Below are positions 263 to 24,000 of a stretch of DNA of 24,000 nucleotides, in pieces. The first letter of the stretch is position 1. Every line of letters begins with the position of its first letter. The notes below the pieces were generated by a model. That model was not told the DNA's origin. It worked only from the letters and a program-made list of their open reading frames with translations, and searched no databases. The DNA is from Actinomycetota bacterium (lineage in GTDB: Bacteria > Actinomycetota > Acidimicrobiia > Acidimicrobiales > AC-14), in assembly GCA_034666105.1 (NCBI GenBank), contig JAXDMK010000127.1, forward strand, positions 23,839-47,838, read 5' to 3'. A program made the translations under genes and the position numbers.

Positions 263-317
263 GGTCCGAGGCTACCGGCCAGGTTTGCCCGCCTCCGACC
301 ACGGGGACGCGTGAGGT

Positions 318-506: not shown

Positions 507-537
507 CGACACCTCCCGTCGTCCGTTTGGTGCGTCC

Positions 538-582: not shown

Positions 583-621
583 CGGCGCTCGAACCGCCGG
601 CGGCGGTAGGTTGCCGCCTGC

Positions 622-1230: not shown

Positions 1231-1239
1231 GCCAAGGGC

Positions 1240-1524: not shown

Positions 1525-1550
1525 GGCCGCCGACGGGCCACACTGTCGTC

Positions 1551-2051: not shown

Positions 2052-2065
2052 CGCCGGGAAATGGG

Positions 2066-3355
<1,290 letters not shown>

Positions 3356-3416
3356 ATCACCAGAGTGGCGCACTTCTGAGGAGTAGGGCGCCGAGGGACG
3401 GGTACGGTGCCAAAAG

Positions 3417-3851
3417 ATGGACCCGGACCGAGCTCGGAAGCCCACGCCGGGGCGGATGCTTCGCCGTGGGCTCACCAAACGGTGCCCGGTCTGCGGCAGC
3501 GGCCACGTCTTCGACGGCTGGTTCCGGATGAAGGAGCGCTGCCCCCGCTGCGACTACCAGTTCGAACGGGAGGAGGGCTTTTTCCTGGGCGCGTACACGG
3601 TCAACCTGGCCATCTCCGAGGGCCTGCTGCTCCTCGTGGCCATCTTCCCCCTGATCTTCCTCCTCGGCACCAACCGCGACGTGAGCATTTGGCCCATCGT
3701 CGGGATCGGGCTGGTGGCGGCCATCGCCGCCCCCCTCGTCTTCTATCCGTTCTCCCGCACCATCTGGTCGGCCGTCGACCTGGCCCTGCGGCCCCGGGAC
3801 CGACCCGAGCCGGCCGACCGCCACCACCTGCCAGCGAAGACCGACTCATGA
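3417..3851 (+). CDS. DUF983-type zinc-ribbon membrane protein
   Basis: Two CxxC pairs (CPVCGSGHVF...CPRCDYQFERE) are followed by two hydrophobic helices (LLLLVAIFPLIFLL, IVGIGLVAAIAAPLVF). The stop overlaps the kinase start (ATGA at 3848-3851). The start could instead be the Met at 3456. Confidence 0.7.
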   Translation: MDPDRARKPTPGRMLRRGLTKRCPVCGSGHVFDGWFRMKERCPRCDYQFEREEGFFLGAYTVNLAISEGLLLLVAIFPLIFLLGTNRDVSIWPIVGIGLVAAIAAPLVFYPFSRTIWSAVDLALRPRDRPEPADRHHLPAKTDS

Positions 3852-6283: not shown

Positions 6284-6316
6284 TTATTGATCAACGATAA
6301 CATCGTTTATCGATAT
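6284..6316. promoter_or_regulatory. AT-rich cluster of palindromes in a divergent promoter region (candidate operator plus -10 elements)
   Basis: In a GC-rich background, 6284-6316 reads TTATTGATCAACGATAACATCGTTTATCGATAT. It contains TTGATCAA (6287-6294), AACGAT-aac-ATCGTT (6293-6307) and TATCGATA (6308-6315). TANNNT-type boxes occur on both strands: TAACAT on + and TATCGT on -. Confidence 0.45.
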
Positions 6317-6351
6317 CCGCAAGGGCGCTTCCCGGGAACCGGCGAGGGAGA

Positions 6352-10957: not shown

Positions 10958-11467
10958 GTGAAGTTCCGCCTCGAGCAGCGATTCCCGGCACCGGTGGAAG
11001 AGGTCGAGGACGCCTACGTCGACCCCGATCTGTTCGCCCACCTCCACCGCCTGGCCGACCTGGGCCGGCCCGAGCTGCTCGACAAGGTCGACGACGGACG
11101 TACCGTCCGCCTCCGGGTCCGCTACGCCTTCACCGGCGAGCTCGGTCCCCCGCTGTCGTCGCTGGTCGAGTCGGCCCGGATCACCTGGGTCGAGGAGTCG
11201 ACGCTCGACCGGCCCACCCACCGCACCGAGTTCCACATCCTGGCCGACCACTACCCCGACCGCCTCCGCTGCCACGGCACCGTCGAGCTGGGCGACGACG
11301 GCGCCGGCGGCACCCTGCGGGTGGCCGAGGGCAAGCTGGAGGTGAAGATCCCGTTCGTCGGGGGCAAGGTGGAGCGGGCCGTGGTCGACAGCCTCACCGA
11401 CCAGGCCGCGGCCCAGGCCCGGGAGGTGGGTGAGTGGCTGGTCAGTCGCCGGCAGGCGCAGGCCTGA
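10958..11467 (+). CDS. SRPBCC-superfamily protein (DUF2505-like)
   Basis: GTG start at 10958 (VKFRLEQRFPAPVEEVEDAYVDPDLF...), 169 aa. The sequence pattern and size are typical of START/polyketide-cyclase-like DUF2505 proteins. This is assigned from memory, not a search. Confidence 0.6.
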   Translation: MKFRLEQRFPAPVEEVEDAYVDPDLFAHLHRLADLGRPELLDKVDDGRTVRLRVRYAFTGELGPPLSSLVESARITWVEESTLDRPTHRTEFHILADHYPDRLRCHGTVELGDDGAGGTLRVAEGKLEVKIPFVGGKVERAVVDSLTDQAAAQAREVGEWLVSRRQAQA

Positions 11468-11975
11468 AGTCGGCGCCCGGCTCCGGCGGGCAGCGGCCGG
11501 CGGCCCGCTCGTCCTCCCGGAAGCGAAGCAGGTGGTCGCGCACGGCCTCGCTGATGACCCGCAGCTGCTCCACCTGCTCCTCGCTGAGCCGGTCGAAGAG
11601 GTGGCTGCGCACACCCTCCACGTGACCGGGGGCGGCCGCGGCCAGGGCCTCGAAACCCTTGTCGGTGAGCACCGCCATCGACCCTCGCCGGTCGGTGGCA
11701 CACGTCTCCCGCCGCACCCAGCCCTCCTCCTCCAACCGGGCCACGGCGTGGGAGATCCGGCTGCGGGACGACTGGGACCGCTCCGCCAGCTCACTCATGC
11801 GCAGGGTGCGGTCGGGCGACTCCGACAGCCGGACGAGGATCTCGTAGTAGCCGTGGGGAATGCCCGCGCTGCGCTGCAAATCGTGGTCGAGCGTCTCGAA
11901 CAGGAGCTGGTTGGCGTCGAGGAACGCGCGCCACGCCCGCTGCTCCTCTGCGTTCAACCACCGGGCCCCAGGCAT
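11442..11975 (-). CDS. MarR-family transcriptional regulator
   Basis: The winged-helix core is LRMSELAERSQSSRSRISHAVARLEEEGWVRRETCATDRRGSMAVLTDKG, with the typical D-x-R...LT-x-x-G wing. The ATG is at 11975. The 3' end overlaps the convergent SRPBCC gene by 26 nt. Confidence 0.9.
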   Translation of the reverse strand: MPGARWLNAEEQRAWRAFLDANQLLFETLDHDLQRSAGIPHGYYEILVRLSESPDRTLRMSELAERSQSSRSRISHAVARLEEEGWVRRETCATDRRGSMAVLTDKGFEALAAAAPGHVEGVRSHLFDRLSEEQVEQLRVISEAVRDHLLRFREDERAAGRCPPEPGADFRPAPAGD

Positions 11976-12021
11976 GTCATCAAGACTATTGGTCCGGAGC
12001 CGCTACCGGTGGGAGAGCTGA

Positions 12022-12190
12022 CGCTTCGCCAATGACTCGCCGATCTGCCACCTGGGCGGGAGGTCGGCCCCCGGCCGGCCGGGAGCGGCGGGGTCGGCCC
12101 GCCACCGGGCATCTGGCCCGCGGCGCGGGCGCCCGGGTAGCTTGGGCCTGTCCCCCTCGCTGTTTGACCCTGCCCGACTCCGAGGAAGCG
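12022..12190 (+). promoter_or_regulatory. candidate structured 5' leader, possibly a divergent ydaO-class (cyclic-di-AMP) riboswitch, upstream of the muralytic gene
   Basis: CGCTTC (12022-12027) can pair with GAAGCG (12185-12190), enclosing about 170 nt. The internal segments CCGATC...GGCGGGAGGTCGGCCC (12040-12070), GAGCGGCGGGGTCGGCCC (12083-12100), hairpin GCCCGCGGCGCGGGC, CTGTCCCCC (12148-12156) and GACCCTGCCCGACTCCGAGGAAGCG (12166-12190) partly resemble my recalled ydaO consensus blocks (CCGAAUC, ACGGAGGAACC, GGGGU, CUGUCCC, ACCCGAC...UCCGGAGGC). The conserved AGCUAAC block is not clearly present. The RBS GGGAGG lies just downstream. Confidence 0.3.
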
Positions 12191-12206
12191 CCGGCCCGGG
12201 AGGTCG

Positions 12207-13193
12207 ATGACCGCACCGCCCCGACGTTCGATCCTGCTCACGACCATGCTGACGGTCCTCGCGCTCGTCGTGGGAGCCGTCGGTGCCGGCGCGGACGAGA
12301 TCGGTGACAAGCAGGCGGAGGCGGAGGCCGTGGCCGGACGGCTGGCCGACCAGGCCCGCGCCATCGTCGCCCTCGACAAGGAGCACCGGGCCGCGGAGGA
12401 CCGTCTGGGCCAGGTCCAGGTCGCCCTCGACCAGGCGCAGACGGAACTGGCGGGGGCGTCGACCCGCCAGGAAGAGGCCCGCCGGCTGCTCGTCGCCCAC
12501 GCCCAGGCCGCCTACGTGACCGGCGGGTCGATCTCCTTCGTCGGCAACCTGGCCAACGGGGCCGCGCCCGACGGCGTCGCCCGCAACACCTACATGCGCC
12601 TGGTGACGGGCGAGGACCGGCAGGCGGTGGGCCGTATGCGGGCGGCCCGGGAGGACCTCGAGATCCGCCGGACCCAGCTCGACGCCGCCCGCCGCAAGGC
12701 CGCCGACCAGGCCGACACCGTCAGCGGCGACCTGGAGGAGCTGCAGCACGCCATGACCGCCCAACGGGCCCAGGTGGCCAAGGTCGACGGCGAGTTGGCC
12801 ACCCTGGTGGTGGCCGAGCAGGCCCGGGCCGAGGAAGCCGCCCGCCAGGAGCGGGCGTTGCGGGACGCGGAGGCGGCGGCGGCCCGGGCCAAGGCCGTGC
12901 CGACCGCCGCCGCCGCCCCGTCGATCCTGGCCGCGGCCTCGACGCCGGCGCCGGGGCTGGCCCTGTCGATGGACGAGGCCTTCGCCTGCATCCGCCAGTT
13001 GGAGTCGGGGAACAACTACTCGGCGCCCGGCGGCGGCGCCTACCAGTTCCTGGACGCGACCTGGGGGTCCCTCGGCTACAGCGGATCGGCCCAGGACCAT
13101 CCCCCGACCGACCAGGACGACGGCGCCCACCGCCTCCAGGCCCGCAGCGGCTGGGGTCAGTGGACCACCGCTTCCCTCTGCGGCCTCATCTGA
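12207..13193 (+). CDS. secreted coiled-coil protein with C-terminal transglycosylase-like (Rpf/SLT-type) domain
   Basis: The signal peptide is MTAPPRRSILLTTMLTVLALVVGAVGAGA. About 200 aa of heptad-like A/E/R/Q-rich sequence resembles a CwlO-type coiled coil. The C-terminus ACIRQLESGNNYSAPGGGAYQFLDATWGSLGY...GWGQWTTASLCG resembles the C-x3-ESGGN...G-x-QF-x3-TW motif of transglycosylase-like muralytic domains. Confidence 0.75.
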   Translation: MTAPPRRSILLTTMLTVLALVVGAVGAGADEIGDKQAEAEAVAGRLADQARAIVALDKEHRAAEDRLGQVQVALDQAQTELAGASTRQEEARRLLVAHAQAAYVTGGSISFVGNLANGAAPDGVARNTYMRLVTGEDRQAVGRMRAAREDLEIRRTQLDAARRKAADQADTVSGDLEELQHAMTAQRAQVAKVDGELATLVVAEQARAEEAARQERALRDAEAAAARAKAVPTAAAAPSILAAASTPAPGLALSMDEAFACIRQLESGNNYSAPGGGAYQFLDATWGSLGYSGSAQDHPPTDQDDGAHRLQARSGWGQWTTASLCGLI

Positions 13194-13210
13194 GCGCCCA
13201 CCCCCGAACC

Positions 13211-13480
13211 GGTGACGGTTGGCGCCCGGTGGGGGCTGTAGGCGTCACCAGTTCGCCGACGGAGCCGCCGCCATGGCAACTGGTGACAGTTGGCGCCCGG
13301 TGGGGGCTGTAGGCGTCACCAGTTCGCCGACGGAGCCGCCGCCATGGCAACCGGTGACACTTAGCGCCCGGTGGGGGCTGTAGACGTCACCAGTTCGCCG
13401 ACGGAGCCGCCGCCATGGCAACCGGTGACACTTAGCGCCCGGTGAGGGCTGTAGGCGTCACCAGTTCGCCGACGGAGCCG
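13211..13480. repeat. tandem array, about 3.8 copies of a 71-bp hairpin-forming unit
   Basis: Units start at 13211, 13282, 13353 and 13424. The consensus is GGTGACRSTTRGCGCCCGGTGRGGGCTGTAGRCGTCACCAGTTCGCCGACGGAGCCGCCGCCATGGCAACY. Copies differ only at unit positions 7, 8, 11, 22, 32 and 71. The last copy diverges after 13480. Each unit contains GGCAACYGGTGAC / GTCACCAGTTCGCC inverted arms. Confidence 0.95.
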
Positions 13481-13495
13481 GTGGCCGGCGCCCGG

Positions 13496-13753
13496 TTAGC
13501 CGTTGTGCTTGGCCCGGCCGGTCCGCCAGACGAGCAGACGGTCGACGAGGGCGCCGAGGACGGCGGTGATGGCGAGGACGCCGATGAGGGGCGCTCTCAC
13601 ATCGCCGACGACGTAGCCGATCCGCACCGACTGCCCGTTGTCGAGCAGCAGGGCCAGCAACACGATCACCGTCACCGCCAGCCCCACGATGCGGGCCGTC
13701 TCCCGGTTGTCCCTCGGCTTGTCGGCTTCCGCCACGAGGCGAACGTAGCCCAA
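13496..13753 (-). CDS. small membrane protein, LapA-domain/DUF1049-like (85 aa)
   Basis: Two hydrophobic helices (IVGLAVTVIVLLALLL, LIGVLAITAVLGALV) are separated by NGQSVRIGYVVG, as in LapA-domain proteins. The track start at 13753 is a TTG, and an in-frame GTG at 13735 is an alternative. Confidence 0.55.
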   Translation of the reverse strand: MGYVRLVAEADKPRDNRETARIVGLAVTVIVLLALLLDNGQSVRIGYVVGDVRAPLIGVLAITAVLGALVDRLLVWRTGRAKHNG

Positions 13754-13802
13754 CCCGACCGAGGGTCAGACGGACGGTTTGTCGTCCCCTCGTCCCGGGG
13801 TT

Positions 13803-14339
13803 TTACGTCCCACCGTGCCCGGTCATCCCTACCACCACCGCCACCTTCGACAGGCGACCGAGGGCGGGATGGCGGACGCACGCCAGGAACAGGCACAGCG
13901 CCGACTGGGCCAGCACCGCCGGGGCCAGGGCGGGCGACGGCCCCACGGCCCCGCTGGCCGCCGCCCACCACCGGGCGGGGGCCGACATGGCGGGCCACCG
14001 GGTGGCGTAGGCGAAGTCGAGCGGAGCCACGCGGTAGTTGGCCAGGACGTGTTCGTAGGTGCCGAAGGCGGCCACCAGGACCAGGCCGAGGGCCACCCAC
14101 CGCACGGCGCGGATGGTGCGGGCCGCGGGACGAACGGCCATGAGGACGACGGCCACCGCGGTGACGGCCACCGCCGCCCACGGGACCAGCTGCACGGTTG
14201 AGTCCCAGTGGCGGAGGGCGGCCAGCTCGAGGGCGGTGCCGGCGGTGCCCAGGCCGGCCAGCAGGAGCAGGCCCTGGCGCAGGGGCCGGGCGGGGTCGGC
14301 GAAGTCGGCCGCCGCCGTTGGAGGGTCCGGCCGGGTCAC
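13803..14339 (-). CDS. hypothetical 4-TM membrane protein (178 aa)
   Basis: This is the C-terminal part of track ORF 13803..15392. The GTG start at 14339 overlaps the stop of the upstream lipoprotein gene (GTGA). Four hydrophobic segments are present (LLLLAGLGTAGTAL, VPWAAVAVTAVAVVLMAV, WVALGLVLVAAFG, LAPAVLAQSALCLFLACV). I recognise no family. Confidence 0.6.
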   Translation of the reverse strand: MTRPDPPTAAADFADPARPLRQGLLLLAGLGTAGTALELAALRHWDSTVQLVPWAAVAVTAVAVVLMAVRPAARTIRAVRWVALGLVLVAAFGTYEHVLANYRVAPLDFAYATRWPAMSAPARWWAAASGAVGPSPALAPAVLAQSALCLFLACVRHPALGRLSKVAVVVGMTGHGGT

Positions 14340-14755
14340 GGGACGAGGGTGGCGACGATCTGGTCGACCACGCCCGGTCCCGGGTTGTACTTGGCCAGTT
14401 CCTGGCGCAGCTTGGCGAACGTCGGGTCGTCGGCGACGTAGGGCCGGTACTCCTCGACCTCCCTCGCCCACTGGGCGGGGCTGGAGATGCCGGCGGCGGT
14501 GAAGGCGGCCTGCAGCTCGGCCCGGGTGGCGTCGTTGGCCGACACCTTCCCGGCCGCGGACGGGGCGGCAGTGGTGGTCGGGGGGACGACGGTCGTGGCC
14601 GGGACAGTCGGGACGGGTGCGGCAGCCGTCGTGGCGGTGGTGGCGGCGCCGGCGGCCGCGGTCGACGGCGTGCCGCTCCCGCCCCCGCCGCAGGCGACGA
14701 GGGACAGAGCCGCGGCCAGACCCAGGCCGGCCAGGCGGGCAGTGGTGATACGCAT
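14336..14755 (-). CDS. lipoprotein with Thr/Ala/Pro linker and small helical (possibly helix-hairpin-helix-like) C-terminal domain
   Basis: I chose the ATG at 14755 (MRITTARLAGLGLAAALSLVACGG), which has a GGAGG RBS 5 nt upstream and a lipobox (LVAC). The linker is T/A/P-rich. The C-terminus NDATRAELQAAFTAAGISSPAQWAREVEEYRPY resembles ComEA/PsbU-type HhH segments, but this assignment is weak. Confidence 0.65.
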   Translation of the reverse strand: MRITTARLAGLGLAAALSLVACGGGGSGTPSTAAAGAATTATTAAAPVPTVPATTVVPPTTTAAPSAAGKVSANDATRAELQAAFTAAGISSPAQWAREVEEYRPYVADDPTFAKLRQELAKYNPGPGVVDQIVATLVP

Positions 14756-14833
14756 CGATTCCTCCGGATGGTGGGGGGTGTCCACTCCACTCTCGGGTCC
14801 CTACCTGGGAGGTACCTGGACGCCCGGTGGGAG

Positions 14834-15595
14834 TTACCCGGAAGCGAGAAGGGCCGCCGCCACCTGACGGTACAGGCCGGTCAGGGCGTGGTCGGGCTGG
14901 CGCACGGCGAGGATGCCGGCGCTGCCCAGCTCCAGGAGGTCGTCCGAGTGGGGTAGCACCGCCGCCACCTCGCACCCGTAGGTGGTGGCCACCTTGGCCC
15001 GCACCTCCTCGGCGTCGTAGCCGGCCGGCGTGTTGTTCACCACCAGCGTGATCCGGGGCACCTTGAGCCGGCGGGCGACGGTGAGGGTGACGTGGGTGCC
15101 CTCGAAGTCCTGCTGGTCGGGCCGGAGGACGATCGCCAGCGAGTTGCACATGGCGATCGACAGGAGCGTCTCCTCCACCAGCCCGGGGTGGGTGTCGAGG
15201 AGGAGGACGTCGAGGGAGAGGGTCTGGATGAGCGACCGGACGCCCTCGTTGAGCACGCCGACGTCGTAGCCCTCCCGCATGACCCGGGCGATGTCGTGGG
15301 CCCGGATGCTCGACGGCACCAGCCACACCTTGCCGCCGGCGGCGGCCGCCGTCCCGGGGGTGACGTCGTGGGCCGCGTCGACCATCGTGCACTGGCCCCA
15401 GAGGTAGTGGTTGAGGGACTGGCCCATGGTGTCCTGGTCGAGGCCGAACAGGATGTGGATGCCGGGCGACTGGATATCGGTGTCGACCACGCCCACCCGC
15501 TTGCCGTCGGCGGCCAGGAGGGCGGCCACATTGGCGGTGGTGTTCGACTTCCCCGTCCCACCCCGGAACGAGTGGACGGCGATCAGGATGGCCAT
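14834..15595 (-). CDS. MinD/ParA-family P-loop ATPase (SIMIBI class)
   Basis: The deviant Walker A is HSFRGGTGKSN, with Arg where MinD/ParA have the signature Lys. Switch/Asp motifs are VGVVDTDIQSPGIH and DVLLLDTHPG. The length is 253 aa. GGGAGGA lies upstream of the ATG at 15595. Confidence 0.85.
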   Translation of the reverse strand: MAILIAVHSFRGGTGKSNTTANVAALLAADGKRVGVVDTDIQSPGIHILFGLDQDTMGQSLNHYLWGQCTMVDAAHDVTPGTAAAAGGKVWLVPSSIRAHDIARVMREGYDVGVLNEGVRSLIQTLSLDVLLLDTHPGLVEETLLSIAMCNSLAIVLRPDQQDFEGTHVTLTVARRLKVPRITLVVNNTPAGYDAEEVRAKVATTYGCEVAAVLPHSDDLLELGSAGILAVRQPDHALTGLYRQVAAALLASG

Positions 15596-15635: not shown

Positions 15636-16343
15636 TCACTGGTCGGCCGCGATCCGCAGCTCGTCGACCCGCCGCTCGAGGTTCTGGAAGTACTCGGTCT
15701 CGGTCACCTCCGCCGCCCGCCGGGCGCTCCGGGTGTGGTCGATCTCGATGGACAGCTCCCGCACCTGCTCTTTCAGCCGGTCCTCCCGCTCCTGGACGTG
15801 GCGGGCCATCCGGGTGAACACCCGGGCCATCTGCCCGAGGGCGTCGGTGCGCCGGCTCACCGGCTCCAGCAGCTCCGGCTCGAAGCGGCCGGCTTCCATG
15901 GCGATGGCGGCGTCGACCACCCGGCCCACCTGCTCCAGGTACTCCCGCTGGAGGTCGAGCAGCCGCTTCTTGGCCAGGCCGGCGTTGATCCGGGCCCGCA
16001 GGAGGCTCCGGTCGAAGGGCTTGGGCAGGTAGTCCTCGGCGCCCATCTCGATGCCGCGGACCACGCTCTCCATATCGTCCACCGCCGAGATCACGATCAC
16101 CGGCACGTGGGTGAGGGTGGGGTCGGCCTTCATCGCCGCCAGCACGTCGAACCCGTCGGCCAGGGGCATGACGATGTCGAGCAGGACCAGATCGAAGGGC
16201 CGGCTGCGCAGCATGTCGAGGGCCTCCAGCCCGTTGGACGCACTCTGGACCCGCAGGCCCTCCTGCTCCAGGCTGCGCGTCAACAGGAGCCGGTTCAACG
16301 ACTCGTCGTCGACGACCAGCACCGTCCCGGCGGGAATGGTCAT
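15636..16343 (-). CDS. response regulator: REC domain plus about 110-aa helical/coiled-coil C-terminal region, no recognisable output domain
   Basis: The REC domain has an intact acidic pocket (VVDDE), phospho-acceptor (LLDIVMP), Ser (VISAV) and Lys (LPKPF). The C-terminal LGQMARVFTRMARHVQEREDRLKEQV is HAMP/coiled-coil-like. The ATG overlaps the stop of the upstream 1026-aa gene (ATGA at 16340-16343). Confidence 0.9.
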   Translation of the reverse strand: MTIPAGTVLVVDDESLNRLLLTRSLEQEGLRVQSASNGLEALDMLRSRPFDLVLLDIVMPLADGFDVLAAMKADPTLTHVPVIVISAVDDMESVVRGIEMGAEDYLPKPFDRSLLRARINAGLAKKRLLDLQREYLEQVGRVVDAAIAMEAGRFEPELLEPVSRRTDALGQMARVFTRMARHVQEREDRLKEQVRELSIEIDHTRSARRAAEVTETEYFQNLERRVDELRIAADQ

Positions 16344-19300
16344 GGTCGACTCACACTAGGCGTGGGCTGGGCGACGTCGAGATCCTCCATCTCCACCCGC
16401 ACGATCACCGGGCCGGATCCGGGGTCGAGGGCGGCGATGACCTGGCTGGTGGTGATGCCGACGTCGAGGGTGACGGGTCCGTCGCCCCCGTCGAGGCGGG
16501 CGCGGGCCTGGAGGGGGAACGAGTCGCCGGTGAAGGTGACGTGGTGGAGCCACACCTTGAGGTCGTGGACGGGTCCGGCAAGGGGCCGGAAGGTGGCGGT
16601 TCGGAAAGAGGGGTAGTCGGCGATCTGGCCCGACGGGACGTCGTGGTCGATCCGGGAGCCGTCGGCGTAGGTGAGCGACACTTCCCCGGCGGCGGGTTCG
16701 CCGCCGGCCGTCATCGAGAAGTAGGCCCGGTCGGCGGGCTCGTCGTCGACGGCCCGCACCTCCACCACCAGCCGCCGGCGGAAGGCGCCCCCCTTCCCGA
16801 CGGCCACGGTGAGGGCGAGGATGCCGGCGCCGGCGAGGAAGCCGCCGGTGCGCCGCCACGGGTCGTCCCAGATCACCAGGGCGTGGGCGAACACGCTGGT
16901 CACCGACAGGACGTAGACGGCGACGAGGACCACCGGGTGTCCCCGGAGACGTCCGGTGGCGGCGGTGCTGTACTCGCCCCGCCGGCGGCTGGAGGCGAGC
17001 AGGAGGACGGGGTAGACGCCCGCCAGCAGCGACACCACGATCACGCCCACGAAGCCGATGAGGCCGGCGAACGACCCCGACCCGGTGGCGAGCATCCACC
17101 CGGCCAGGGAGAAGACGCCCACCACGGGCGCGAGCCCGACGGCCACGCCGGCGGCGGTGCCCGCCAGGGCCCGCCGCACCGCCGGCAGGGTCCGCGGCGG
17201 GGCCAGACCGGACGGGTCGGGGTCGGGGCGGCGGGGGTCGGGGCGGCGGGCATGGGCGTCGGCGTCGCCCCCGGGCCCGTCGGCGTCGGCGGCCATGGCG
17301 GCCCAGACCCGGTCGGGCAGGTTCCGGGCCCGGCGGACGGCCATGCGGGCCTGGTAGCGGTGGTCGTCGTCGGCGTCCGACTCGGAGACCAGGCCCCGCT
17401 CCAGGAGCGACTCGAGGACCTCGCGGGCGCCGGAACGGTCACCGCCGGCGTGGGCGACGACCTGCTCGAACACCACGCCGCCCTCCCGCGCCATCCACCC
17501 CACCATCGCCGCCTCCGCCTCGTCGACGTCGAGGAGGTCGGCCATGCCGGTCCCCAGCGCGTCCCAGTCGCCCTCGTAGGAGACGGCCAGCGACGACGCC
17601 ACCCGCAGGCGGACGCTCCCGGGGGACGCGTCGAGGATGTCCAGGGTCACCTGCAGGCCCCGCTCGCCGATTCCGGGGACAGCCTTGGTGAGGGGTGACT
17701 GGACGTTGTCGCCCAGCAGGGCCCATGGGTCCTCGGCCGTGGCCTCGACCCGGTGGAGGGCGCCGTCGAGGTCGACGTCGAGGCGGAAGCGGGGCCCCCG
17801 GTCGAGGCCGAGATAGGTCACCGCCATCCGGGCGGGGGGCCGGCGGCTCGACGGCCGCCGTTCGGAGAGGACCAGGGTGCCGCCCCGGCGGGGCAGGAGC
17901 ACCACCGGGTCGGGGTGCGACGGCAGCCGCTCCCGGGTCAGGTTGTAGAGGGCGAGGCTGTAGTGGATCGATCCCATGCCCATCCCCAGCACCACGTAGA
18001 CCGCGCCCAACACGCTCACCAGCGGCCCCACCTTGTCGGCCAGCGGCACCAGGGCGGTGCCCGTCTCCCGGGCCAGCACCCCCCCGTCGACCGCCCCACC
18101 CACCGTGAGCACCCACAGGCAGTAGACGACGAGGGCGGTGGCCTGGGCGGCCACGACCCCTCTGACCAGCGCTTTTCCGGTCGGCTCCCGACGCAGCACC
18201 TCCTGGCCGCACAGGCTCACCGACAGGTGGCCGAAGAAGGCGGCCAGGATCACCCCGAACACGGAACCGACCAGGGCGGCGTCGAAGGGACGCCCGGCCA
18301 CGAACGGCAGCTCGATCCGGGTGACGTTGGCCATCTCCAGGCTGGGGACCGACAGGAGGGTGATGACCAGGATCATGGTCAGGTTCACGATGCCGACGAC
18401 GATGGCGACGGCGATGGTGGCGTCGAGCGAACCCCTCCGGATCATGAAGACGGCCGCCGCGAACAGGAGGGCCACGAACAGCTCCGGCGGCAGACCGGTG
18501 GCGCCGGCCATCGTCGACCCGATTCCGACCTGGTCGGCCACCATGATCAGGAAGCTGAAGACGAAGAGGGCGCCGGTGAGCACCACCGACCCGGCCCCGC
18601 CCAGGTAGTCGTGCACCATCTTGCCGATGTAGGCGGCCCCGTAGCGGACGGAGCCGCTGCGGGCCACCGCCTCCCCCATGGCCGCGGCGGTGACGATGTT
18701 CACCAGGCCGAGGACGGCGAGCACGACCACCCCCGCCAGGGGTCCGATGCCGGCCAACGCGATGGGCAGGGCCAGCATGCTCGTCCCCACCGTCTCGGTG
18801 AGGCTGAGGACGTAAGCCGACCACGCCGGCGGGAGTGACTCCAGCCGGGTGGCGAGGCGGGTCCACAGCCAGCGCAGCCGTCCGCCGGCGCCGAGGTCGT
18901 CGGCGAAGACCCGTTCGATCGGCTCCTCGTAGAGCTGCCGGTAGGCGGCGGCCACCAGCTCGTCGTCGAGGCCGACGGCGGCGCGGATGCCGGGCACCGC
19001 GTCCCTGGTGAAGACGTACTTCTCGCCCAGGAGGTGGGCGAGGGCGGCCCGGCCCCGGGGGTTGGAGGGAACGAGCGGCGCCCAGTGGGCGGCGTAGCGC
19101 TCGAGGTCGTGGATGCGGACCGGGAAGGGGGGCTCCCGGCCCCGGGCGAAGGCGTCGACGAAGGCCAGGTCGCGGTCGCGGACGGTGTCGTCGGTGAGGA
19201 AGGGGGCCATCGCCTGCCGGGCCCGGGCCGCCAGGTGGCCGGTGCGGCTCTCGATCAGGAACAGCAGCGTCCGGGCCCGCCGGGCGGTGAGGCCCCCGAC

Positions 19301-19420
19301 GAGCTGGGTCCAGTCCGCGCGATCCCGGCCATCCGACGTCGTCCCGCCAGTCTGGCCGGGGCCCGCCGGCCGGGGCAAGGACCCTAGGATGCGGGCGGTG
19401 GTGCTCGACCCCGCCGCCAT
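16340..19420 (-). CDS. large polytopic membrane protein: cytoplasmic N-domain + APC/aromatic-amino-acid-permease-like TM core split by a soluble insert + C-terminal beta-rich domain
   Basis: 1026 codons with normal coding composition. About 12 hydrophobic helices are visible by eye: 8 in aa 200-490 and 4 in aa 750-880. The TM1 motif LTETVGTSMLALPIALAG resembles the G-x-G-MLALP motif of the Trp/Tyr permease family. A soluble insert spans aa 495-750 and a soluble C-terminus spans aa 881-1026. The start is uncertain: either the ATG at 19420 (antisense overlap with Hpt) or the TTG at 19378. Confidence 0.8.
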   Translation of the reverse strand: MAAGSSTTARILGSLPRPAGPGQTGGTTSDGRDRADWTQLVGGLTARRARTLLFLIESRTGHLAARARQAMAPFLTDDTVRDRDLAFVDAFARGREPPFPVRIHDLERYAAHWAPLVPSNPRGRAALAHLLGEKYVFTRDAVPGIRAAVGLDDELVAAAYRQLYEEPIERVFADDLGAGGRLRWLWTRLATRLESLPPAWSAYVLSLTETVGTSMLALPIALAGIGPLAGVVVLAVLGLVNIVTAAAMGEAVARSGSVRYGAAYIGKMVHDYLGGAGSVVLTGALFVFSFLIMVADQVGIGSTMAGATGLPPELFVALLFAAAVFMIRRGSLDATIAVAIVVGIVNLTMILVITLLSVPSLEMANVTRIELPFVAGRPFDAALVGSVFGVILAAFFGHLSVSLCGQEVLRREPTGKALVRGVVAAQATALVVYCLWVLTVGGAVDGGVLARETGTALVPLADKVGPLVSVLGAVYVVLGMGMGSIHYSLALYNLTRERLPSHPDPVVLLPRRGGTLVLSERRPSSRRPPARMAVTYLGLDRGPRFRLDVDLDGALHRVEATAEDPWALLGDNVQSPLTKAVPGIGERGLQVTLDILDASPGSVRLRVASSLAVSYEGDWDALGTGMADLLDVDEAEAAMVGWMAREGGVVFEQVVAHAGGDRSGAREVLESLLERGLVSESDADDDHRYQARMAVRRARNLPDRVWAAMAADADGPGGDADAHARRPDPRRPDPDPSGLAPPRTLPAVRRALAGTAAGVAVGLAPVVGVFSLAGWMLATGSGSFAGLIGFVGVIVVSLLAGVYPVLLLASSRRRGEYSTAATGRLRGHPVVLVAVYVLSVTSVFAHALVIWDDPWRRTGGFLAGAGILALTVAVGKGGAFRRRLVVEVRAVDDEPADRAYFSMTAGGEPAAGEVSLTYADGSRIDHDVPSGQIADYPSFRTATFRPLAGPVHDLKVWLHHVTFTGDSFPLQARARLDGGDGPVTLDVGITTSQVIAALDPGSGPVIVRVEMEDLDVAQPTPSVSRP

Positions 19421-19742
19421 CGACCGGCTGGTCCTCGCCTTCGGTCACGAGGGCAGGGGCGTCGTGGCCGAGCTGGTGGCCACGTTCCTGGCCGAGGCCC
19501 CGTCCCGCCTGGACGCCCTGCGCCGGGGGGTCGCGTCGGGCGACCCGCGGGAGGTGCACCGGGCCGCCCACACGTTGAAGTCGGGCGCGGCCACCCTGGG
19601 GGCGTCGGAGCTGGCGGCGGTGTGCCGGGAGGTGGAGGCGTTGGGTGGCGCCGGTGACGTGGCCGGCGCGGCCGCCCTGGTCCCGGCGGTGGAGGCCGGC
19701 TACGACCTGGCCCGGCAGGCGTTGCTCGAGGCCGTCGGATGA
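19389..19742 (+). CDS. stand-alone Hpt (histidine phosphotransfer) protein, 117 aa
   Basis: The motif HRAAHTLKSGAATLGASELA matches the Hpt H-x-LK-G/S-x4-G consensus, including the phosphorylatable His. I chose the ATG at 19389 (MRAVVLDPAAIDRL) within track ORF 19113..19742. The stop overlaps the GNAT start (ATGA). Confidence 0.8.
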   Translation: MRAVVLDPAAIDRLVLAFGHEGRGVVAELVATFLAEAPSRLDALRRGVASGDPREVHRAAHTLKSGAATLGASELAAVCREVEALGGAGDVAGAAALVPAVEAGYDLARQALLEAVG

Positions 19743-20257
19743 CGGATGCGCTCGACGGGGCGTTGGTACGGCTGCGGCGGGCCACCCGGGACGACATCGG
19801 CGAGCTGGTGCGGATCCGGGGGACGCCGGAGGTCTACGCCCGGTGGCGGGGCGGCGACGACCTGACCGCGTCGGTGGAGGAGGACTTCGACGACCCCGAC
19901 CTGATCGGCTACGTCATCGAGCTCGACCGGCGGATCGTGGGGTGGATCCAATGGGAGGCGGAGGAGACGCCCGACTACCGCCATGCCAGCGTCGACATCT
20001 TCGTCGACCCGGCGGTGCACGGGCGCGGCATCGGCACCGACGCGGTGCGCACGCTGGCCCGGCACCTCCTGCGGGATCACGGCCACCACCGGCTGGTGAT
20101 CGACCCCGCGGCCGACAACGAGGCCGCCATCCGGGCCTACGCCAAGGTCGGCTTCCGGCCCGTCGGCATCATGCGCCGCTACGAACGGGCCTCGGACGGC
20201 ACCTGGCACGACGCCCTCCTCATGGACCTCCTGGCCGACGAGTTCGTGGAGGAGTAG
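19739..20257 (+). CDS. GNAT-family N-acetyltransferase (Acetyltransf_8 / AAC(6')-like subgroup by eye)
   Basis: The acetyl-CoA motif A is VDPAVHGRGIGTDAV. NEAAIRAYAKVGFRPVGIMRRY and the C-terminal W-x-D-x-LLMDLL are typical of this subgroup. Confidence 0.85.
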   Translation: MTDALDGALVRLRRATRDDIGELVRIRGTPEVYARWRGGDDLTASVEEDFDDPDLIGYVIELDRRIVGWIQWEAEETPDYRHASVDIFVDPAVHGRGIGTDAVRTLARHLLRDHGHHRLVIDPAADNEAAIRAYAKVGFRPVGIMRRYERASDGTWHDALLMDLLADEFVEE

Positions 20258-20263
20258 CCGGCG

Positions 20264-21163
20264 TCAGCCGGCCGCGGCTCGGGCGGCGAACTCGAGGGCG
20301 CCGGCGGGACCGGCGCCGTCGCCCAGGCCGGCGGTGACAACGAAGTCGGGCCGGTCGTATTCGGGAAGGCCGGGGTAGCCGCCCAACGTCGCCGCCAGGG
20401 AGCCCCGCACCCGCTCCACCAGGCCGGCCATGTGCGCCACTCCCCCGCCCAGCACGATCCGCTCGGGCGCGAAGGCGTAGACCGCGTTGCGCAGGCCGGC
20501 GGCCAGGTAGGCGGCCTCCAGGTCGAGGGCGGCCTCCCGCCGTGCCCCATCCAGCTCCTCCGGCCGGCACCCCCAGCGGGCGGTCATGGCCGTGCCGCTG
20601 GCCATCCCCTCGAGACAGTCCCGATGGGCGAAGCACGCCCCCTCGTAGGCGTCGCCGACCTGCCGGGGCACGATGACGTGGCCCATCTCCGGATGGAGGA
20701 TGCCGTGGACGAGGACCCCGTCGACCACGATCCCCATCCCGATACCGGTGCCGATGGTGACGTAGACGAAGTCGGTCAACCCCCGGGCCGCCCCCGCCGC
20801 CCCCTCGGCCAGGGCCGCCCCGTCGACGTCGGACCCGATCCCCACCGGCACGCCCGGGAACGCGGCCCGCACCGGCGCCAGCACGTCGACGCCGACCCAC
20901 GCCCGCTTGGGGGTCTCCAGCAGGTGGCCGTAGGTGGGAGCGTCGGGCCGGAGGTCGACCGGCCCGAAGGCGGCCACGCCGATGGCCGCCAGCGGCCCCT
21001 GCTCGTCGGCCATCGTCCGCAGGCGGTCGACGGCCCACCCGAGCGTCTCGACCGGCGCAGTCGTCGGATGCCGGTCGAGGGCCACCACGCCCCCCGGCCC
21101 GTCGCCGACCACGCAGATGACCTTGGTGCCCCCCAGCTCGATCCCCCCGAGGAGACGGCTCAG
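20264..21163 (-). CDS. ROK-family sugar kinase (fructokinase/GmuE-like)
   Basis: Motifs are LLGGIELGGTKVICVVG (ATP-binding DxGGT-type), HPEMGH and CFAHRDCLEGMASG. There is no in-frame ATG/GTG/TTG upstream of the GGTK motif. The best candidate start is the CTG at 21163..21161, which overlaps the permease stop (CTGA). The start is therefore uncertain. Confidence 0.8.
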   Translation of the reverse strand: MSRLLGGIELGGTKVICVVGDGPGGVVALDRHPTTAPVETLGWAVDRLRTMADEQGPLAAIGVAAFGPVDLRPDAPTYGHLLETPKRAWVGVDVLAPVRAAFPGVPVGIGSDVDGAALAEGAAGAARGLTDFVYVTIGTGIGMGIVVDGVLVHGILHPEMGHVIVPRQVGDAYEGACFAHRDCLEGMASGTAMTARWGCRPEELDGARREAALDLEAAYLAAGLRNAVYAFAPERIVLGGGVAHMAGLVERVRGSLAATLGGYPGLPEYDRPDFVVTAGLGDGAGPAGALEFAARAAAG

Positions 21164-22218
21164 TGCCCGGCCGACTTCCGGGTGTTGAGCTGGTCGAAGC
21201 CGACGGCCACCAGGATGAGCACGCCGATGGCGATCTGCAGGTAGAAGGCGTTGATGGCCAACAGGTTGCCACCGTTGTTGAGCACGCCCATGATGAGCGC
21301 CCCCGTGGCCGCGCCCAGGGCGCTCCCCTTGGCCCCGAACAGGCTGGCGCCGCCGATCACGCAGGCGGCGATGGCGTTCAGCTCGAAGCCGGTGCCGGCC
21401 GTGGGGATCCCCGCGCCCAGGCGGGACGTGAGCAGGAACCCGCCCACGCCCGCCAGCAGGCCCGAGATGGCGTAGACCGATACGGTCACGACCCGCACCG
21501 GCACCCCGGCCAGGCGGGCCGACTCCGGGTTCGACCCCACCGCGTAGATGTAGCGGCCGAAAACGGTGCGGGTGAGCACGAAGTGGATCGCGACGGTGAT
21601 GATCACCGCGAACACGAGCAGGTTGGGGATGCCGACGAGGGTTCCGTTGGCGATGGTCTCGAAGCCCTTGGGCAGCGGTCCGACCGTCTTGGCGTCGGTG
21701 ATGACGAGGACGACGCCCCGGGCGATCCCCAGCATGCCCAGGGTGGCGATGAAGGGCGGCAGCTTGGCCCTGGTGACCAGCAGCCCGTTGACGAGGCCGA
21801 GACCGGTGCCGAGCAGGACGCCGACCAGGATGGCCAGCGGGATCGGCCACCCCGCCACCAGCAACTGGGCCGTGACCGCGCCCGACAGGGCCAGGATCGA
21901 CCCCACCGACAGGTCGATCCCCGCGGTCAGGATCACCAGCAGCTGGCCCACCGCGATGATGCCGAAGATGGCGACCTGGCGGGCCAGGTTGGACAGGTTG
22001 TTCCCGGTCAGGAAGTCGCCGCTGGCCAGGGTGAGCGCCCCCACCGCCACCAGCAGGACGACCAGACCGCCGCTCTCCCGCCCGGCCACGTCGCCCAGGG
22101 TGACGACCCGGTTGACCGTCGCCGGCTCGCCCGGCTCGTCGGGCGGCTCGATGCCCACCGCCGGTCCGCTGCGGATGGTGGTGGTGAGAACCGGCTCGCG
22201 CCACAGCAACTTAGGCAT
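21160..22218 (-). CDS. sugar ABC transporter permease (RbsC/CUT2 type)
   Basis: About 10 TM segments. TAGIDLSVGSILAL and GGASLFGAKGS motifs are typical of BPD_transp_2 ribose-type permeases. The ATG at 22218 overlaps the ATPase gene by 8 nt. Confidence 0.9.
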   Translation of the reverse strand: MPKLLWREPVLTTTIRSGPAVGIEPPDEPGEPATVNRVVTLGDVAGRESGGLVVLLVAVGALTLASGDFLTGNNLSNLARQVAIFGIIAVGQLLVILTAGIDLSVGSILALSGAVTAQLLVAGWPIPLAILVGVLLGTGLGLVNGLLVTRAKLPPFIATLGMLGIARGVVLVITDAKTVGPLPKGFETIANGTLVGIPNLLVFAVIITVAIHFVLTRTVFGRYIYAVGSNPESARLAGVPVRVVTVSVYAISGLLAGVGGFLLTSRLGAGIPTAGTGFELNAIAACVIGGASLFGAKGSALGAATGALIMGVLNNGGNLLAINAFYLQIAIGVLILVAVGFDQLNTRKSAGH

Positions 22219-23773
22219 TCGCGTCCACCTTTCCCTCGGAGGCCGGAGGTCGACCGCCGCCGCTGGCCAGCCGCAGCACGTCCTCCTCCGACGCCGCCCG
22301 CCCCAGCTCCCCGGCCACCGCCCCGTCCTTCAGCACCAGGACGCGGTCGGCCAGGCCGAGCAGCTCGGGCAGGTACGACGAGACCACGATGATGCCCAGC
22401 CCGGCCGCGGCCAGGTCGCCGATCACCGTGTACAGCTCGCCCTTGGCGCCCACGTCGATGCCCTTGGTGGGCTCGTCGAACACCAGGATCCGGGGCTTGG
22501 TCAGCAGCCACCGGGCCAGGAGCACCTTCTGCTGGTTCCCGCCCGACAACGTCGACACCGGCTGGTCGTAGGACCCGGCCCGCAGGCGGAGGCTGTCGAG
22601 CAGCCTGTCGGCCTCCTCCCCCATCTCCTTGGGCGGGAGCAGGCCCCGCCGCGATCCCCGCCGGAGGCTGGCGATGGTGACGTTCTCCCGGATCGACAGC
22701 TCGGGCAGCAGGCCCAGCACCTTGCGGTCCTCGGTGAGGAGGCCGATGCCGGCGTTCATCATGGTGCGGGGACCGGTGGGCTTGACCGGCGTGCCTTCCA
22801 CCTCGATCTCGCCGGCCACGATCGGCGTGGCCCCGAACAACGACAACAGCAGCTCGCTGCGTCCCGACCCCAGCAGCCCGCCGATGCCGAGGATCTCGCC
22901 CGCCCGCAGGTCGAAGTCGATCGTGGGACCGTCGGCCTCCCGCTGCAGGCCCCGCACCCGGAGCAGTGGAGTCCCCGGCTCCTTGTGGGTGTCGGGGTAG
23001 AGCGACGTGATCTCCCGGCCGACCATGGCCGTGATGAGCTTGTCCTCGTCGTAGGCCGACATGGGTCCGCTCTCCGACAGCCCGCCGTCGCGGAGAACCG
23101 TCACCCAGTCCCCGATCTCGAACATCTCCTCCAGCCGGTGGGTGACGTAGAGCATGGCCACGCCCGCCTCCCGCAGCCGCTTGATGTGCTCCATCAGCCG
23201 CTTCGACTCGGACTCGGTCAGCGCGGTCGTGGGCTCGTCGAAGACGATGACCTTCACCACGTCGGCGGTGAGGACCTTGGCGATCTCCACCAGCTGGCGG
23301 GTGGCGGCGGGGAGCCGCTCGACGATGGCGTCGGGGGAGACGTTGTGGAGGCCGACGTCGTCGAGCGCCGTGCGGGCCCGGGCCTTGAGGTCGCCCCTGT
23401 CGAGCACCCCCCGGTGCGACGGCAGCCGGCCCATGAACAGGTTCTCCGCCACGGACAGGTGCGGAAGCAGGCTGAGCTCCTGGTACACGGCCTGCACCCC
23501 CGCCTCCCGCAGGGCGGCGGGCGTGGGCGAGGCGACCGGCTCGCCGTCGATGACGAACGTGCCCGCGTCCGCCTTGTGGGCGCCGGTGAGGACCTTGATG
23601 AGGGTGGACTTGCCGGCCCCGTTCTCCCCCGCCAGGCAGTGGACCTGCCCCGGCAGCAGGCGAAGGTCGACGTTGGACAGGGCCTGGACGGGCCCGAACG
23701 CCTTGGAGATGCCCTTCAGCTCGAGAACGGCGGTGCGCTCGGCCGCCGGCGGGGGTGTTGTGGTGGCGGTCAT
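22211..23773 (-). CDS. sugar ABC transporter ATP-binding protein, duplicated ABC domains (RbsA/MglA type)
   Basis: Domain 1 has Walker A GENGAGKST and Walker B VIVFDEPT. Domain 2 has the degenerate P-loop GLLGSGRSEL, the signature LSGGNQQKV and Walker B ILVFDEPTKGIDVGAK. Confidence 0.95.
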   Translation of the reverse strand: MTATTTPPPAAERTAVLELKGISKAFGPVQALSNVDLRLLPGQVHCLAGENGAGKSTLIKVLTGAHKADAGTFVIDGEPVASPTPAALREAGVQAVYQELSLLPHLSVAENLFMGRLPSHRGVLDRGDLKARARTALDDVGLHNVSPDAIVERLPAATRQLVEIAKVLTADVVKVIVFDEPTTALTESESKRLMEHIKRLREAGVAMLYVTHRLEEMFEIGDWVTVLRDGGLSESGPMSAYDEDKLITAMVGREITSLYPDTHKEPGTPLLRVRGLQREADGPTIDFDLRAGEILGIGGLLGSGRSELLLSLFGATPIVAGEIEVEGTPVKPTGPRTMMNAGIGLLTEDRKVLGLLPELSIRENVTIASLRRGSRRGLLPPKEMGEEADRLLDSLRLRAGSYDQPVSTLSGGNQQKVLLARWLLTKPRILVFDEPTKGIDVGAKGELYTVIGDLAAAGLGIIVVSSYLPELLGLADRVLVLKDGAVAGELGRAASEEDVLRLASGGGRPPASEGKVDANA

Positions 23774-24000
23774 GACCCCGCCTTCTCGGTCGGCGGCTCG
23801 AGGAGCTGCTTGACCTCGACCTGCTCCATGTTGCCCTGGTCGGCCACCACCGCCCCCGGGTCGAGCACCCGCGGCGGGATGCGGCCGACGGTGGCCATGC
23901 CCGCCTGGAGGACGCCCTGGTAGCCGAAGAAGTACGGGTTCTGCACCACCAGGGCGTCGATCGACCCGTCGGCCAGGGCCGCGTTCTCCTGGGGGTCGGA
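23770..24000 (-). CDS. sugar ABC transporter substrate-binding protein (RbsB/Peripla_BP_4 type), C-terminal part; gene continues past right edge
   Basis: My reverse-strand translation is SDPQENAALADGSIDALVVQNPYFFGYQGVLQAGMATVGRIPPRVLDPGAVVADQGNMEQVEVKQLLEPPTEKAGS*. The D-A-L-V-V-Q-N-P-Y segment is typical of CUT2 binding proteins. The stop overlaps the ATPase start (ATGA at 23770-23773). Confidence 0.8.
   Translation of the reverse strand, partial: SDPQENAALADGSIDALVVQNPYFFGYQGVLQAGMATVGRIPPRVLDPGAVVADQGNMEQVEVKQLLEPPTEKAGS

Follow-up and report, generated by a model that had tools for sequence, protein, structure and literature searches.

The window that we analyzed, a 24,000-nucleotide stretch of DNA from an Actinomycetota bacterium (contig JAXDMK010000127.1), carries a gene for a 1026-residue membrane protein that combines a carrier-like core with three soluble parts, an N-terminal domain (N-domain), an insert in a loop and a C-terminal domain (C-domain). 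This protein belongs to a discrete, uncharacterized family, which is present in at least eight phyla and is defined by the conserved N-domain fused to the first transmembrane helix (TM1) and by the beta-rich C-domain that follows TM12. According to the structural model, its core has the APC/LeuT fold, and its nearest recognizable relatives are the amino acid carriers of the AAAP (Aa_trans) and HAAAP (Trp/Tyr/Ser permease) families. We are highly confident in these statements on architecture and family. On balance, we also lean toward the combined statement that the protein is a signal-controlled transporter or a transceptor, the cytoplasmic domains of which would dock a nucleotide switch; the mechanistic coupling of the membrane protein with a neighboring ATPase and a coiled-coil protein, taken by itself, is a tentative proposal.

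An AlphaFold2 model was built on 118 family members (mean predicted local distance difference test score (pLDDT) 81.4; predicted template modeling score (pTM) 0.77). Together with hydropathy, it matched nearly residue for residue the layout that a first-pass annotation of the DNA had drawn by eye, i.e., a soluble N-domain, eight TM helices, a soluble insert, four more TM helices and a beta-rich C-domain. The LeuT fold is defined by ten core helices arranged as two inverted repeats of five. In carriers of this fold, TM1 and TM6 are discontinuous and form the substrate site together with TM3 and TM8 (PMC5809530). In the model, DSSP showed TM1 to be broken at residues 212-214 (helices 198-212 and 214-221), within the motif LTETVGTSMLALP, and TM6 to be broken at residues 394-398 (helices 381-394 and 398-411), so that both helices are unwound as in the LeuT fold; the residues flanking the breaks are the best conserved of the core. 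Two short helices of the extracellular loop 4 (EL4) type were also present between TM7 and TM8. When the full model was compared with the Protein Data Bank (PDB) using Foldseek, the top matches were exclusively LeuT-fold carriers, with a probability of 1.00, target TM-scores of 0.45-0.60 and 310-385 aligned columns. They comprised AdiC, BasC, GkApcT, ApcT, Nramp/MntH, LAT1/2, y+LAT, CodB, NCC/KCC and AUX1/LAX3. The first-pass proposal of an APC-fold-like core is therefore borne out by the Foldseek matches and by the broken TM1 and TM6, and the contrary finding that its author had allowed for, the lack of any APC/LeuT-like core, was not made. The author had also likened the TM1 motif to the unwound TM1 of Trp/Tyr/Ser permeases, which agrees with the break within this motif and with a weak match to the araaP model.

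This match, to the NCBIfam model TIGR00837 (araaP), reached 28.6 bits (E 8e-7), for a cut-off of 350 bits. The Pfam model Aa_trans (PF01490) scored 22.6 bits (E 5e-5) on residues 199-401 only, its gathering threshold being 25.6. Thus, the profile searches recommended at first pass did return Aa_trans and araaP, but at scores that missed the curated thresholds. Among the 120 closest homologues, 88 had precomputed matches to Aa_trans and/or Trp_Tyr_perm. Judged from the sequences, the relation to these two families is real but remote. No significant match to PDB chains was obtained in a sequence search with the whole protein or with a family profile of TM1-8; this is unsurprising, because the HAAAP family has no member of solved structure (PMC10862720). 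The region from TM1 to TM8 comprised exactly 303 residues, with no insertion or deletion, in nearly all of 72 full-length homologues, and the elements surrounding the helix breaks (L-A-L-P-I-A, G226-P227, G389 and Y-F-G-H) were fully or almost fully conserved from cyanobacteria through to actinobacteria. The alignment thus indicates that the core is strongly constrained at its putative ligand-site motifs.

Among 70 family members, the mean number of Lys and Arg residues was 1.6-7.4 per predicted cytoplasmic loop and 0-0.9 per outside loop. This points to a 12-TM topology with the N terminus inside and with every soluble part in the cytoplasm, and the positive-inside rule thereby supports the earlier presumption, made from even TM counts, that the soluble parts lie on the same, cytoplasmic, side. 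The N-domain is the best-conserved part of the family, with 29% of its columns at least 90% conserved, more than in the membrane core, and in the model its last helix runs directly into TM1. The C-domain was found in 71 of the 72 full-length homologues at the loci studied, and also in forms that lack the insert. Neither the N-domain nor the C-domain had a relative in Pfam, NCBIfam or the PDB by sequence or profile search. The first half of the insert is a beta domain, which was confidently predicted when modeled alone with AlphaFold2 (pLDDT 87.2). In isolation it retrieved nothing significant from the PDB with Foldseek (best E 0.098; TM-score at most 0.31), and its profile had no sequence relative among PDB chains. 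These three domains are left with no Pfam model and no solved relative detectable by sequence. We also considered that the C-domain and the beta insert might be duplicates of each other, but rejected this since hhalign gave a probability of 1%.

A first search for relatives yielded 779 of them, the best 120 of which were considered and were about 960-1000 residues long. In a larger search, carried out by phmmer with TM1-8 as the query on 1.84e9 representatives (clusters at 50% identity), 498 representatives were retrieved at E<=1e-3 and 247 at 1e-30; ordinary permeases were not reached at E<=1e-3. A scan of one genome per species gave 152 stretches encoding family members. Their hosts were, among Actinomycetota, Rubrobacteria and Thermoleophilia (Gaiellaceae, Solirubrobacterales and the cultured Patulibacter and Paraconexibacter) and, among other groups, Anaerolineae, Chloroflexia, Nostocales, Methylomirabilis, Rokubacteria, Binatia, Dormibacterota, Acidobacteriota and metagenome-assembled genomes (MAGs) of Bathyarchaeia. 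The family is common in soil and freshwater Actinomycetota, in Chloroflexota and in heterocystous cyanobacteria, and Nostoc, Scytonema, Patulibacter and Paraconexibacter are tractable cultured hosts. Database labels are automatic, the proteins being called 'amino acid permease/predicted transcriptional regulator' or 'hypothetical protein'. At five loci (L011, L014, L038, L042 and L061), the tblastn matches to the query spanned more than 4.4 kb or occurred twice per contig, and two other loci (L007 and L049) shared one contig; some genomes appear to hold tandem or nearby paralogous copies.

In a census of 125 near-complete representatives, 65 had both the beta domain and the winged-helix segment that follows it in the insert, 12 had the beta domain only, 45 had no insert and 3 apparently had only the winged helix. 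The beta-only forms comprised nearly all cyanobacterial members, one Acidobacteriota and one Anaerolineae member, and in them 11-20 residues replaced the 75-residue winged helix. The insert-less forms, whose existence the first-pass annotation had asked about, are about 745 residues long; they have a short TM8-TM9 loop and keep the N-domain, 12 contiguous TM helices and the C-domain. In a rough neighbor-joining tree of the membrane core, they fell mostly into a few pure clades. The occurrence of beta-only and insert-less forms indicates that the insert is an optional module of the TM8-TM9 cytoplasmic loop. In the forms that bear it, the linker between the winged helix and TM9 varied from 23 to 83 residues. 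The architecture had been called very unusual, and so it is among characterized transporters; in nature it is common, with hundreds of members.

Since spurious long open reading frames (ORFs) are common at the G+C content of the window (about 73%), we tested the reading frame of the 1026-codon ORF. The G+C content at third codon positions (GC3) was 0.90-1.00 in all 60-codon segments across the ORF, with no change of phase. At second positions (GC2), it was mostly 0.42-0.58, with values of 0.70-0.72 in the first segment and in the Asp/Pro-rich linker. The full architecture was present in over 100 independent homologues, which were about 45% identical across about 95% of the length, and it recurred in assemblies from NCBI, ENA, JGI and Logan as well as in complete genomes. 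Furthermore, the 12-TM core of the insert-less homologues is completed by TM9-12. It had been envisaged that the ORF might be an artifact, i.e., two or three genes joined by a frameshift or a misassembly; the frame analysis and the homologues rule this out, and the probability that we leave to it is negligible. The segment 16340..19420 is a single real gene. Its start is placed differently in the database, where the gene call (P0001) has 1012 residues and begins at 19378, 14 codons past the ATG of the ORF. The family conservation starts at about residue 36 of the 1026-residue protein, and residues 1 to ~35 are unconserved and were modeled with pLDDT <50. With the ATG at 19420, the gene overlaps by about 30 nt with a divergent gene that starts at 19389 and encodes a histidine phosphotransfer (Hpt) protein; with the start at 19378, only about 10 nt separate the starts of the two genes.

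The second half of the insert showed the helix-helix-helix-strand-strand topology of a winged helix over residues 634-691, as had been suspected at first pass, and its profile matched MarR (3bpv, at 5e-5) and also EutK, ArsR and SmtB in the PDB. This would be in line with a membrane-tethered one-component regulator in the manner of CadC/ToxR, in which the core would sense an amino acid and the winged helix of the TM8-TM9 loop would bind DNA. Weak Pfam matches on the query to TrmB and to MarR_2 (14.3 bits, E 0.046, for a gathering threshold of 27 bits), precomputed MarR_2 or HTH_IclR matches in 13 of the 120 closest homologues, and a conserved basic patch after the wing (mean charge +3.8) argue in the same direction. 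However, among 48 members the mean net charge was -2.7 for the core of the winged helix and -1.8 for its recognition helix, and the best-conserved residues of this domain, W642 and R645, belong to helix 1 and not to the helix that would read DNA. Winged helices that do not bind DNA (the DEP domain of DEPTOR, DDRGK1, SelB and ESCRT-II) were matched equally well by the profile, and the dimerization helices of MarR are absent. Finally, the winged helix is missing in cyanobacterial members and the entire insert in 45 of the 125 representatives, yet the gene partners described below persist. An acidic and dispensable winged helix is unlikely to bind DNA; it is probably not a DNA reader, and we regard the tethered regulator as very unlikely. 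Thus, of the DNA- or ligand-binding module proposed at first pass, the winged helix is retained and DNA reading is disfavored.

The gene neighborhood, which the first-pass annotation of the protein had not seen, turned out to be the most informative feature, owing to the ATPase and the HAMP-coiled-coil protein encoded there. In the window, the membrane-protein gene opens a compact operon, with the genes for a response regulator and an ATPase behind it. The response-regulator gene and the membrane-protein gene share 4 nt, at the start of the former and the stop of the latter. The REC domain of the regulator is canonical (D12, D13, D56, S86 and K108 providing the acidic pocket, the phospho-acceptor Asp, the Ser and the Lys), and its C-terminal 110 residues, which matched HAMP below threshold (E 0.003), contain no enzymatic or DNA-binding output. 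The ATPase gene lies 40 nt further downstream. Its product scored 58.6 bits with the Pfam model ParA, 51.5 bits with AAA_31 and 48.1 bits with CbiA, and its closest solved structure was the archaeal MinD 1hyq (1.2e-11), with Mrp, MinD and Soj also among the near ones. No C-terminal amphipathic membrane-targeting helix was evident in its sequence. Other identities were considered and rejected: the ATPase sequence has no CxxC motif, as would be expected of Mrp/NBP35, and no C-terminal Tyr cluster, as would be expected of a BY-kinase. A role in anti-phage defense was likewise discarded, since PADLOC gave no match on the membrane protein and only generic P-loop or REC matches on its partners.

We then counted these partners within 2.5 kb of the homologues at 45 loci that had at least 2.5 kb on both flanks. 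An ATPase, 50-70% identical, was present at 33 of them, the HAMP-coiled-coil domain at 35 and both at 32. Most of the partner genes overlapped or were separated by under 100 nt, and often by under 50 nt, their order varied among phyla, and the co-localization extended over Actinomycetota, Chloroflexota, Cyanobacteria, Methylomirabilis, Binatia and Dormibacterota. Hpt homologues were found at 6 of the 45 loci and are common in the actinobacterial ones. All 57 distinct partner ATPases contained the sequence S[FY]RGGTGKS, with Arg in place of the signature Lys of the deviant Walker A motif. They belong to the MinD/ParA fold family but depart from its Walker A consensus, KGGxxGK[ST], and the invariance of RGGTGKS in 57 of 57 indicates that they form a dedicated subfamily. 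The coiled-coil domain was variable in its attachments: it was fused to REC in actinobacteria and others, often after a PAS-rich hybrid kinase and Hpt, to dCache_1-HAMP in Nostocales, and to CHASE3-HAMP at one insert-less locus. The partners were kept at 3 of the 5 insert-less loci sampled, one of which (L087) had the order REC, REC-HAMP-coiled coil (244 residues), ATPase and homologue; the partnership therefore belongs to the core of the family and not to the insert.

LeuT-fold carriers move by rocking the bundle (TM1, 2, 6 and 7) against the rigid hash (TM3, 4, 8 and 9), with the largest displacement of the bundle on the cytoplasmic side, where TM1a often swings (PMC10862720). Because the N-domain sits on TM1a of the bundle, the insert on TM8/TM9 of the hash and the C-domain behind TM12, the relative geometry of these domains would change with the cycle. 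In the mechanism that we propose, the permease core would still bind, and probably carry, a small amino acid-like ligand by alternating access. The partner ATPase, which has no evident membrane-targeting helix of its own, would dock on the cytoplasmic domains as an ATP-bound dimer. The HAMP-coiled-coil protein would set the state of the ATPase and, in the present organism, would itself be switched by phosphotransfer from Hpt to REC. The outcome could be a signal-dependent gating of uptake or a reporting of ligand occupancy, as in a transceptor, and the winged helix would serve as an auxiliary adaptor for protein binding rather than as an output. The transceptor status is what we infer from a genomic association with signaling proteins, the only link seen. 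A more ambitious version, which we hold to be rather unlikely, is that of a three-part machine in which the RGGTGKS ATPase would dock on the LeuT-fold carrier and either gate or energize transport or read its conformation, under the control of exchangeable inputs (REC, dCache or CHASE3). By analogy, such a machine might follow an ArsAB-like logic within the APC superfamily or be a prokaryotic counterpart of SLC38A9-Rag signaling.

Several observations weigh against the coupled scheme. The protein scored under the permease thresholds of Pfam and NCBIfam, its family profile matched no solved LeuT-fold protein, and the class of its ligand is a guess. The coupling is deduced solely from the gene neighborhood. 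At 9 of the 45 loci, mostly from Anaerolineae but also from one Bathyarchaeia and one Acidobacteriota MAG, neither partner was found within 2.5 kb; at one of these loci (L011), both lay just past this cutoff. Adjacency is also lacking in the Anaerolineales genome CP070811. Two of the 5 insert-less members had no partners nearby, so that the gene evidently can stand by itself. Lastly, a Rosetta-stone search found no fusion of the ATPase with the membrane protein, over-long ORFs that could pass for such fusions being read-through artifacts of high-GC DNA.

The loci with no partner nearby would suit a plain amino acid permease, whose extra domains would stabilize or regulate it locally and whose neighboring ATPase and response regulator would do an unrelated job; the LeuT-fold core with its conserved TM1 and TM6 motifs would be expected in this case as well. 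What makes this explanation unlikely in our eyes is the presence of both partners at 32 of the 45 loci, across phyla and despite changes in gene order and in the input domain, together with the dedicated RGGTGKS subfamily of ATPases and with an N-domain conserved beyond the membrane core, which is unexpected for a passive appendage. The same ATPase suggests another possibility, namely that it works, as ParA or MinD does, with the coiled-coil protein as a MinE-, ParB- or McdB-like activator, and that the two position the membrane protein or use it as a landmark, the permease fold serving mainly as an anchor. The resemblance of the ATPase to the structures of archaeal MinD, Mrp, MinD and Soj, the small partner with a coiled coil and the need for a protein anchor that would result from the missing membrane-targeting helix all fit this idea. 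We judge it distinctly unlikely, since the signature Lys of ParA/MinD is replaced, the constrained ligand-site motifs and the lack of insertions or deletions in the core would be needless in an anchor, and the wiring of the coiled-coil partner to REC, dCache and CHASE3 fits signaling better than housekeeping.

Few membrane proteins have been studied as much as LeuT-fold carriers. To our knowledge, no folded domain has been described in their TM8-TM9 (hash) loop, nor a conserved N-domain fused to TM1a, nor a dedicated ATPase partner of the MinD/ParA type. If the coupling that we propose is true, it would be a new way to control or to read out a secondary transporter, and both an orphan ParA/MinD subfamily and a class of output-less HAMP-coiled-coil sensors would gain a function. 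The features of the membrane protein and of its neighbors are given in Table 1.

Table 1. Features of the membrane protein and of its operon and divergent neighbors (positions in the window; residue numbers are those of the protein concerned)
Feature	Position	Strand	Basis
Membrane-protein gene, whole	16340..19420	-	ATG-to-stop ORF of 1026 codons; full-length homologues
N-domain, cytoplasmic, all-alpha, residues 36-196	18833..19315	-	AlphaFold2 helices 37-194
TM1-TM8 of predicted core, residues 197-499	17924..18832	-	AlphaFold2 TM helices in 198-498; Foldseek; motifs GxxxLALPIA and YFGH
Beta half of insert, residues 500-625	17546..17923	-	Nine antiparallel strands, 506-617, in TM8-TM9 cytoplasmic loop
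Winged-helix half of insert, residues 626-700, then basic patch	17321..17545	-	Helix-helix-helix-strand-strand, about 626-691; profile matches
Disordered Asp/Pro-rich linker, residues 701-745	17186..17320	-	pLDDT <50 over 694-739
TM9-TM12, residues 746-878	16787..17185	-	AlphaFold2 helices 755-779, 784-814, 829-850, 854-876
C-domain, cytoplasmic, beta-rich, residues 879-1015	16376..16786	-	Twelve strands, 883-1011; pLDDT ~90
Response regulator, REC (residues 8-120) and HAMP-like coiled coil (residues 123-235)	15636..16343	-	Pfam Response_reg, 106 bits, 1.4e-30
MinD/ParA-like P-loop ATPase, Walker A SFRGGTGKS	14834..15595	-	Pfam ParA, AAA_31 and CbiA above threshold
Stand-alone Hpt phosphotransfer protein, divergent from membrane-protein gene	19389..19742	+	Pfam Hpt, 9.9e-18

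Further downstream, 48 nt past the ATPase gene, the window contains a lipoprotein-like gene (14336-14785, minus strand), the 149-residue product of which has a signal peptide, an LVAC lipobox and an Ala/Thr/Pro-rich linker; it had no Pfam match and no counterpart adjoining the homologues at other loci. The next segment on the same strand (about 13803-14290) has a high GC3 and would encode a small, very hydrophobic protein with about four TM helices; the ORF listed around it (13803-15392) extends far upstream through other genes. Among the other genes on this side of the window, four with roles in signaling or the cell wall encode a Ser/Thr kinase with a PASTA domain (3380-5422, plus strand), a GAF-HisKA_3 kinase (6301-7527, plus strand), a MarR-family regulator (11442-12002, minus strand) and an Rpf-like protein with a transglycosylase domain (12168-13193, plus strand). 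This set of PASTA kinase, histidine kinase, MarR and Rpf-like protein is typical of Actinomycetota, and none of its members is conserved beside the homologues. Beyond the Hpt gene, there is a GNAT gene (19739-20257) and, upstream of the latter, an apparently separate sugar-uptake operon (20264-23998, minus strand) with a ROK-family kinase, an ABC permease of the BPD_transp_2 type and an ABC ATPase. Rfam and tRNA scans gave no match. A promoter and terminator scan of the operon found no sites, which is uninformative at 73% GC.

Some neighbors at other loci also deserve mention. At the insert-less locus L087, divergent genes (1-2764, minus strand) encode a periplasmic binding protein of the amino acid type (Peripla_BP_6/ANF_receptor) and a TorS-like hybrid histidine kinase, which hints at extracellular amino acids as the input in that organism. 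In four Anaerolineae loci (L001-L003 and L019), where no partners adjoin, the homologue stands in a housekeeping-type row made of a Hexapep (CysE-like) protein, CysS, the homologue and a methylase of the SpoU/TrmH type. This cysE-cysS-type row may point to a ligand related to Ser or Cys, or may be a coincidence; taken with the likeness to HAAAP carriers, it makes Ser, Thr, Cys and the aromatic amino acids candidate ligands. The Nostocales loci add two further genes to the module, one for a DUF7005 protein (Pfam E 6e-178) and one for a protein with two repeats resembling cyclic nucleotide (cNMP)-binding ones (11676-12938 and 13005-14099 in Nostoc sp. C117, locus L075), equivalents of which occurred at 17 and 13 of the 45 loci, respectively. 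The DUF7005 protein has an HExxH-like motif, 'HECTH', and, from this motif, may be a metallopeptidase-like enzyme. A literature search returned no publication on DUF7005, on the family or on its gene module.

The membrane protein can be compared with several known systems. With the AAAP (PF01490: SLC32/36/38 and AUX1/LAX) and HAAAP (PF03222: Mtr, TyrP, SdaC and TdcC) carriers, it shares the predicted LeuT fold with discontinuous TM1 and TM6, the motifs 'G-x-x-x-L-x-L-P' in TM1 and 'F-G-H' in TM6, and weak but consistent profile matches; with target TM-scores of 0.56-0.60, AUX1/LAX3 ranked among the best Foldseek matches by this measure. It differs from them by having 12 TM helices rather than the usual 11 and, HAAAP permeases being of about 400 residues, by its additional N-domain of 160, C-domain of 135 and TM8-TM9 insert of 250 residues. 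Unlike them, it misses the curated thresholds and belongs to a separate clade, which phmmer did not link to ordinary permeases. The example member of the PAAP family (TCDB 2.A.120) is B. subtilis YyaD (PMC10862720). It is taken here to be a different protein. The partner ATPase resembles MinD/ParA ATPases in that it exceeds the thresholds of ParA, CbiA and AAA_31 and has the archaeal MinD 1hyq as its nearest solved structure, and differs from them by the Arg that replaces the signature Lys and by the lack of an obvious membrane-targeting helix.

LysP-CadC and DctA-DcuS are co-sensing pairs, and ToxR and CadC are membrane-tethered winged-helix regulators. As in LysP-CadC, an amino acid permease would here be tied to a signaling protein, with a winged helix held at the membrane. 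In CadC, however, the winged helix is basic, N-terminal and part of a separate bitopic protein, whereas here it is acidic, located in a permease loop and often dispensable. In the ArsA-ArsB system, a SIMIBI-class ATPase docks on a secondary carrier, which yields an ATP-coupled pump. Here too, an ATPase of the MinD/ArsA class is encoded beside a membrane protein of the secondary-carrier type, and docking on the cytoplasmic loops is conceivable. In contrast, ArsB does not have the LeuT fold, ArsA is a pseudo-dimer with a metalloid site, and the sensor-linked coiled-coil protein is a third component specific to the present system.

SLC38A9 is an arginine sensor of the AAAP family, the N-terminal tail of which engages the Rag GTPases, and yeast Ssy1 is also a transporter-derived sensor. 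Pseudomonas CbrA is described as a histidine kinase joined to an SSS-type transporter (PMC13022988), and Bacillus GerAB is listed among transporter-derived sensors (PMC8617281). In common with these four proteins, the present family would have a LeuT-fold ligand-binding core joined to signaling parts. The family resembles SLC38A9 in that its main conserved element on the cytoplasmic side precedes TM1 and in that a P-loop NTPase is its putative partner. The differences are that this partner is a MinD/ParA-type ATPase and neither a Rag GTPase nor a fused kinase and that the two-component parts are separate proteins. None of the systems compared (SLC38A9-Rag, CbrA, Ssy1, GerAB, ArsA-ArsB and LysP-CadC) shares the domain set or the partners described here. 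What is newly seen is a family of hundreds of members with an optional insert, in partnership with an Arg-variant MinD/ParA ATPase and with output-less HAMP-coiled-coil sensors.

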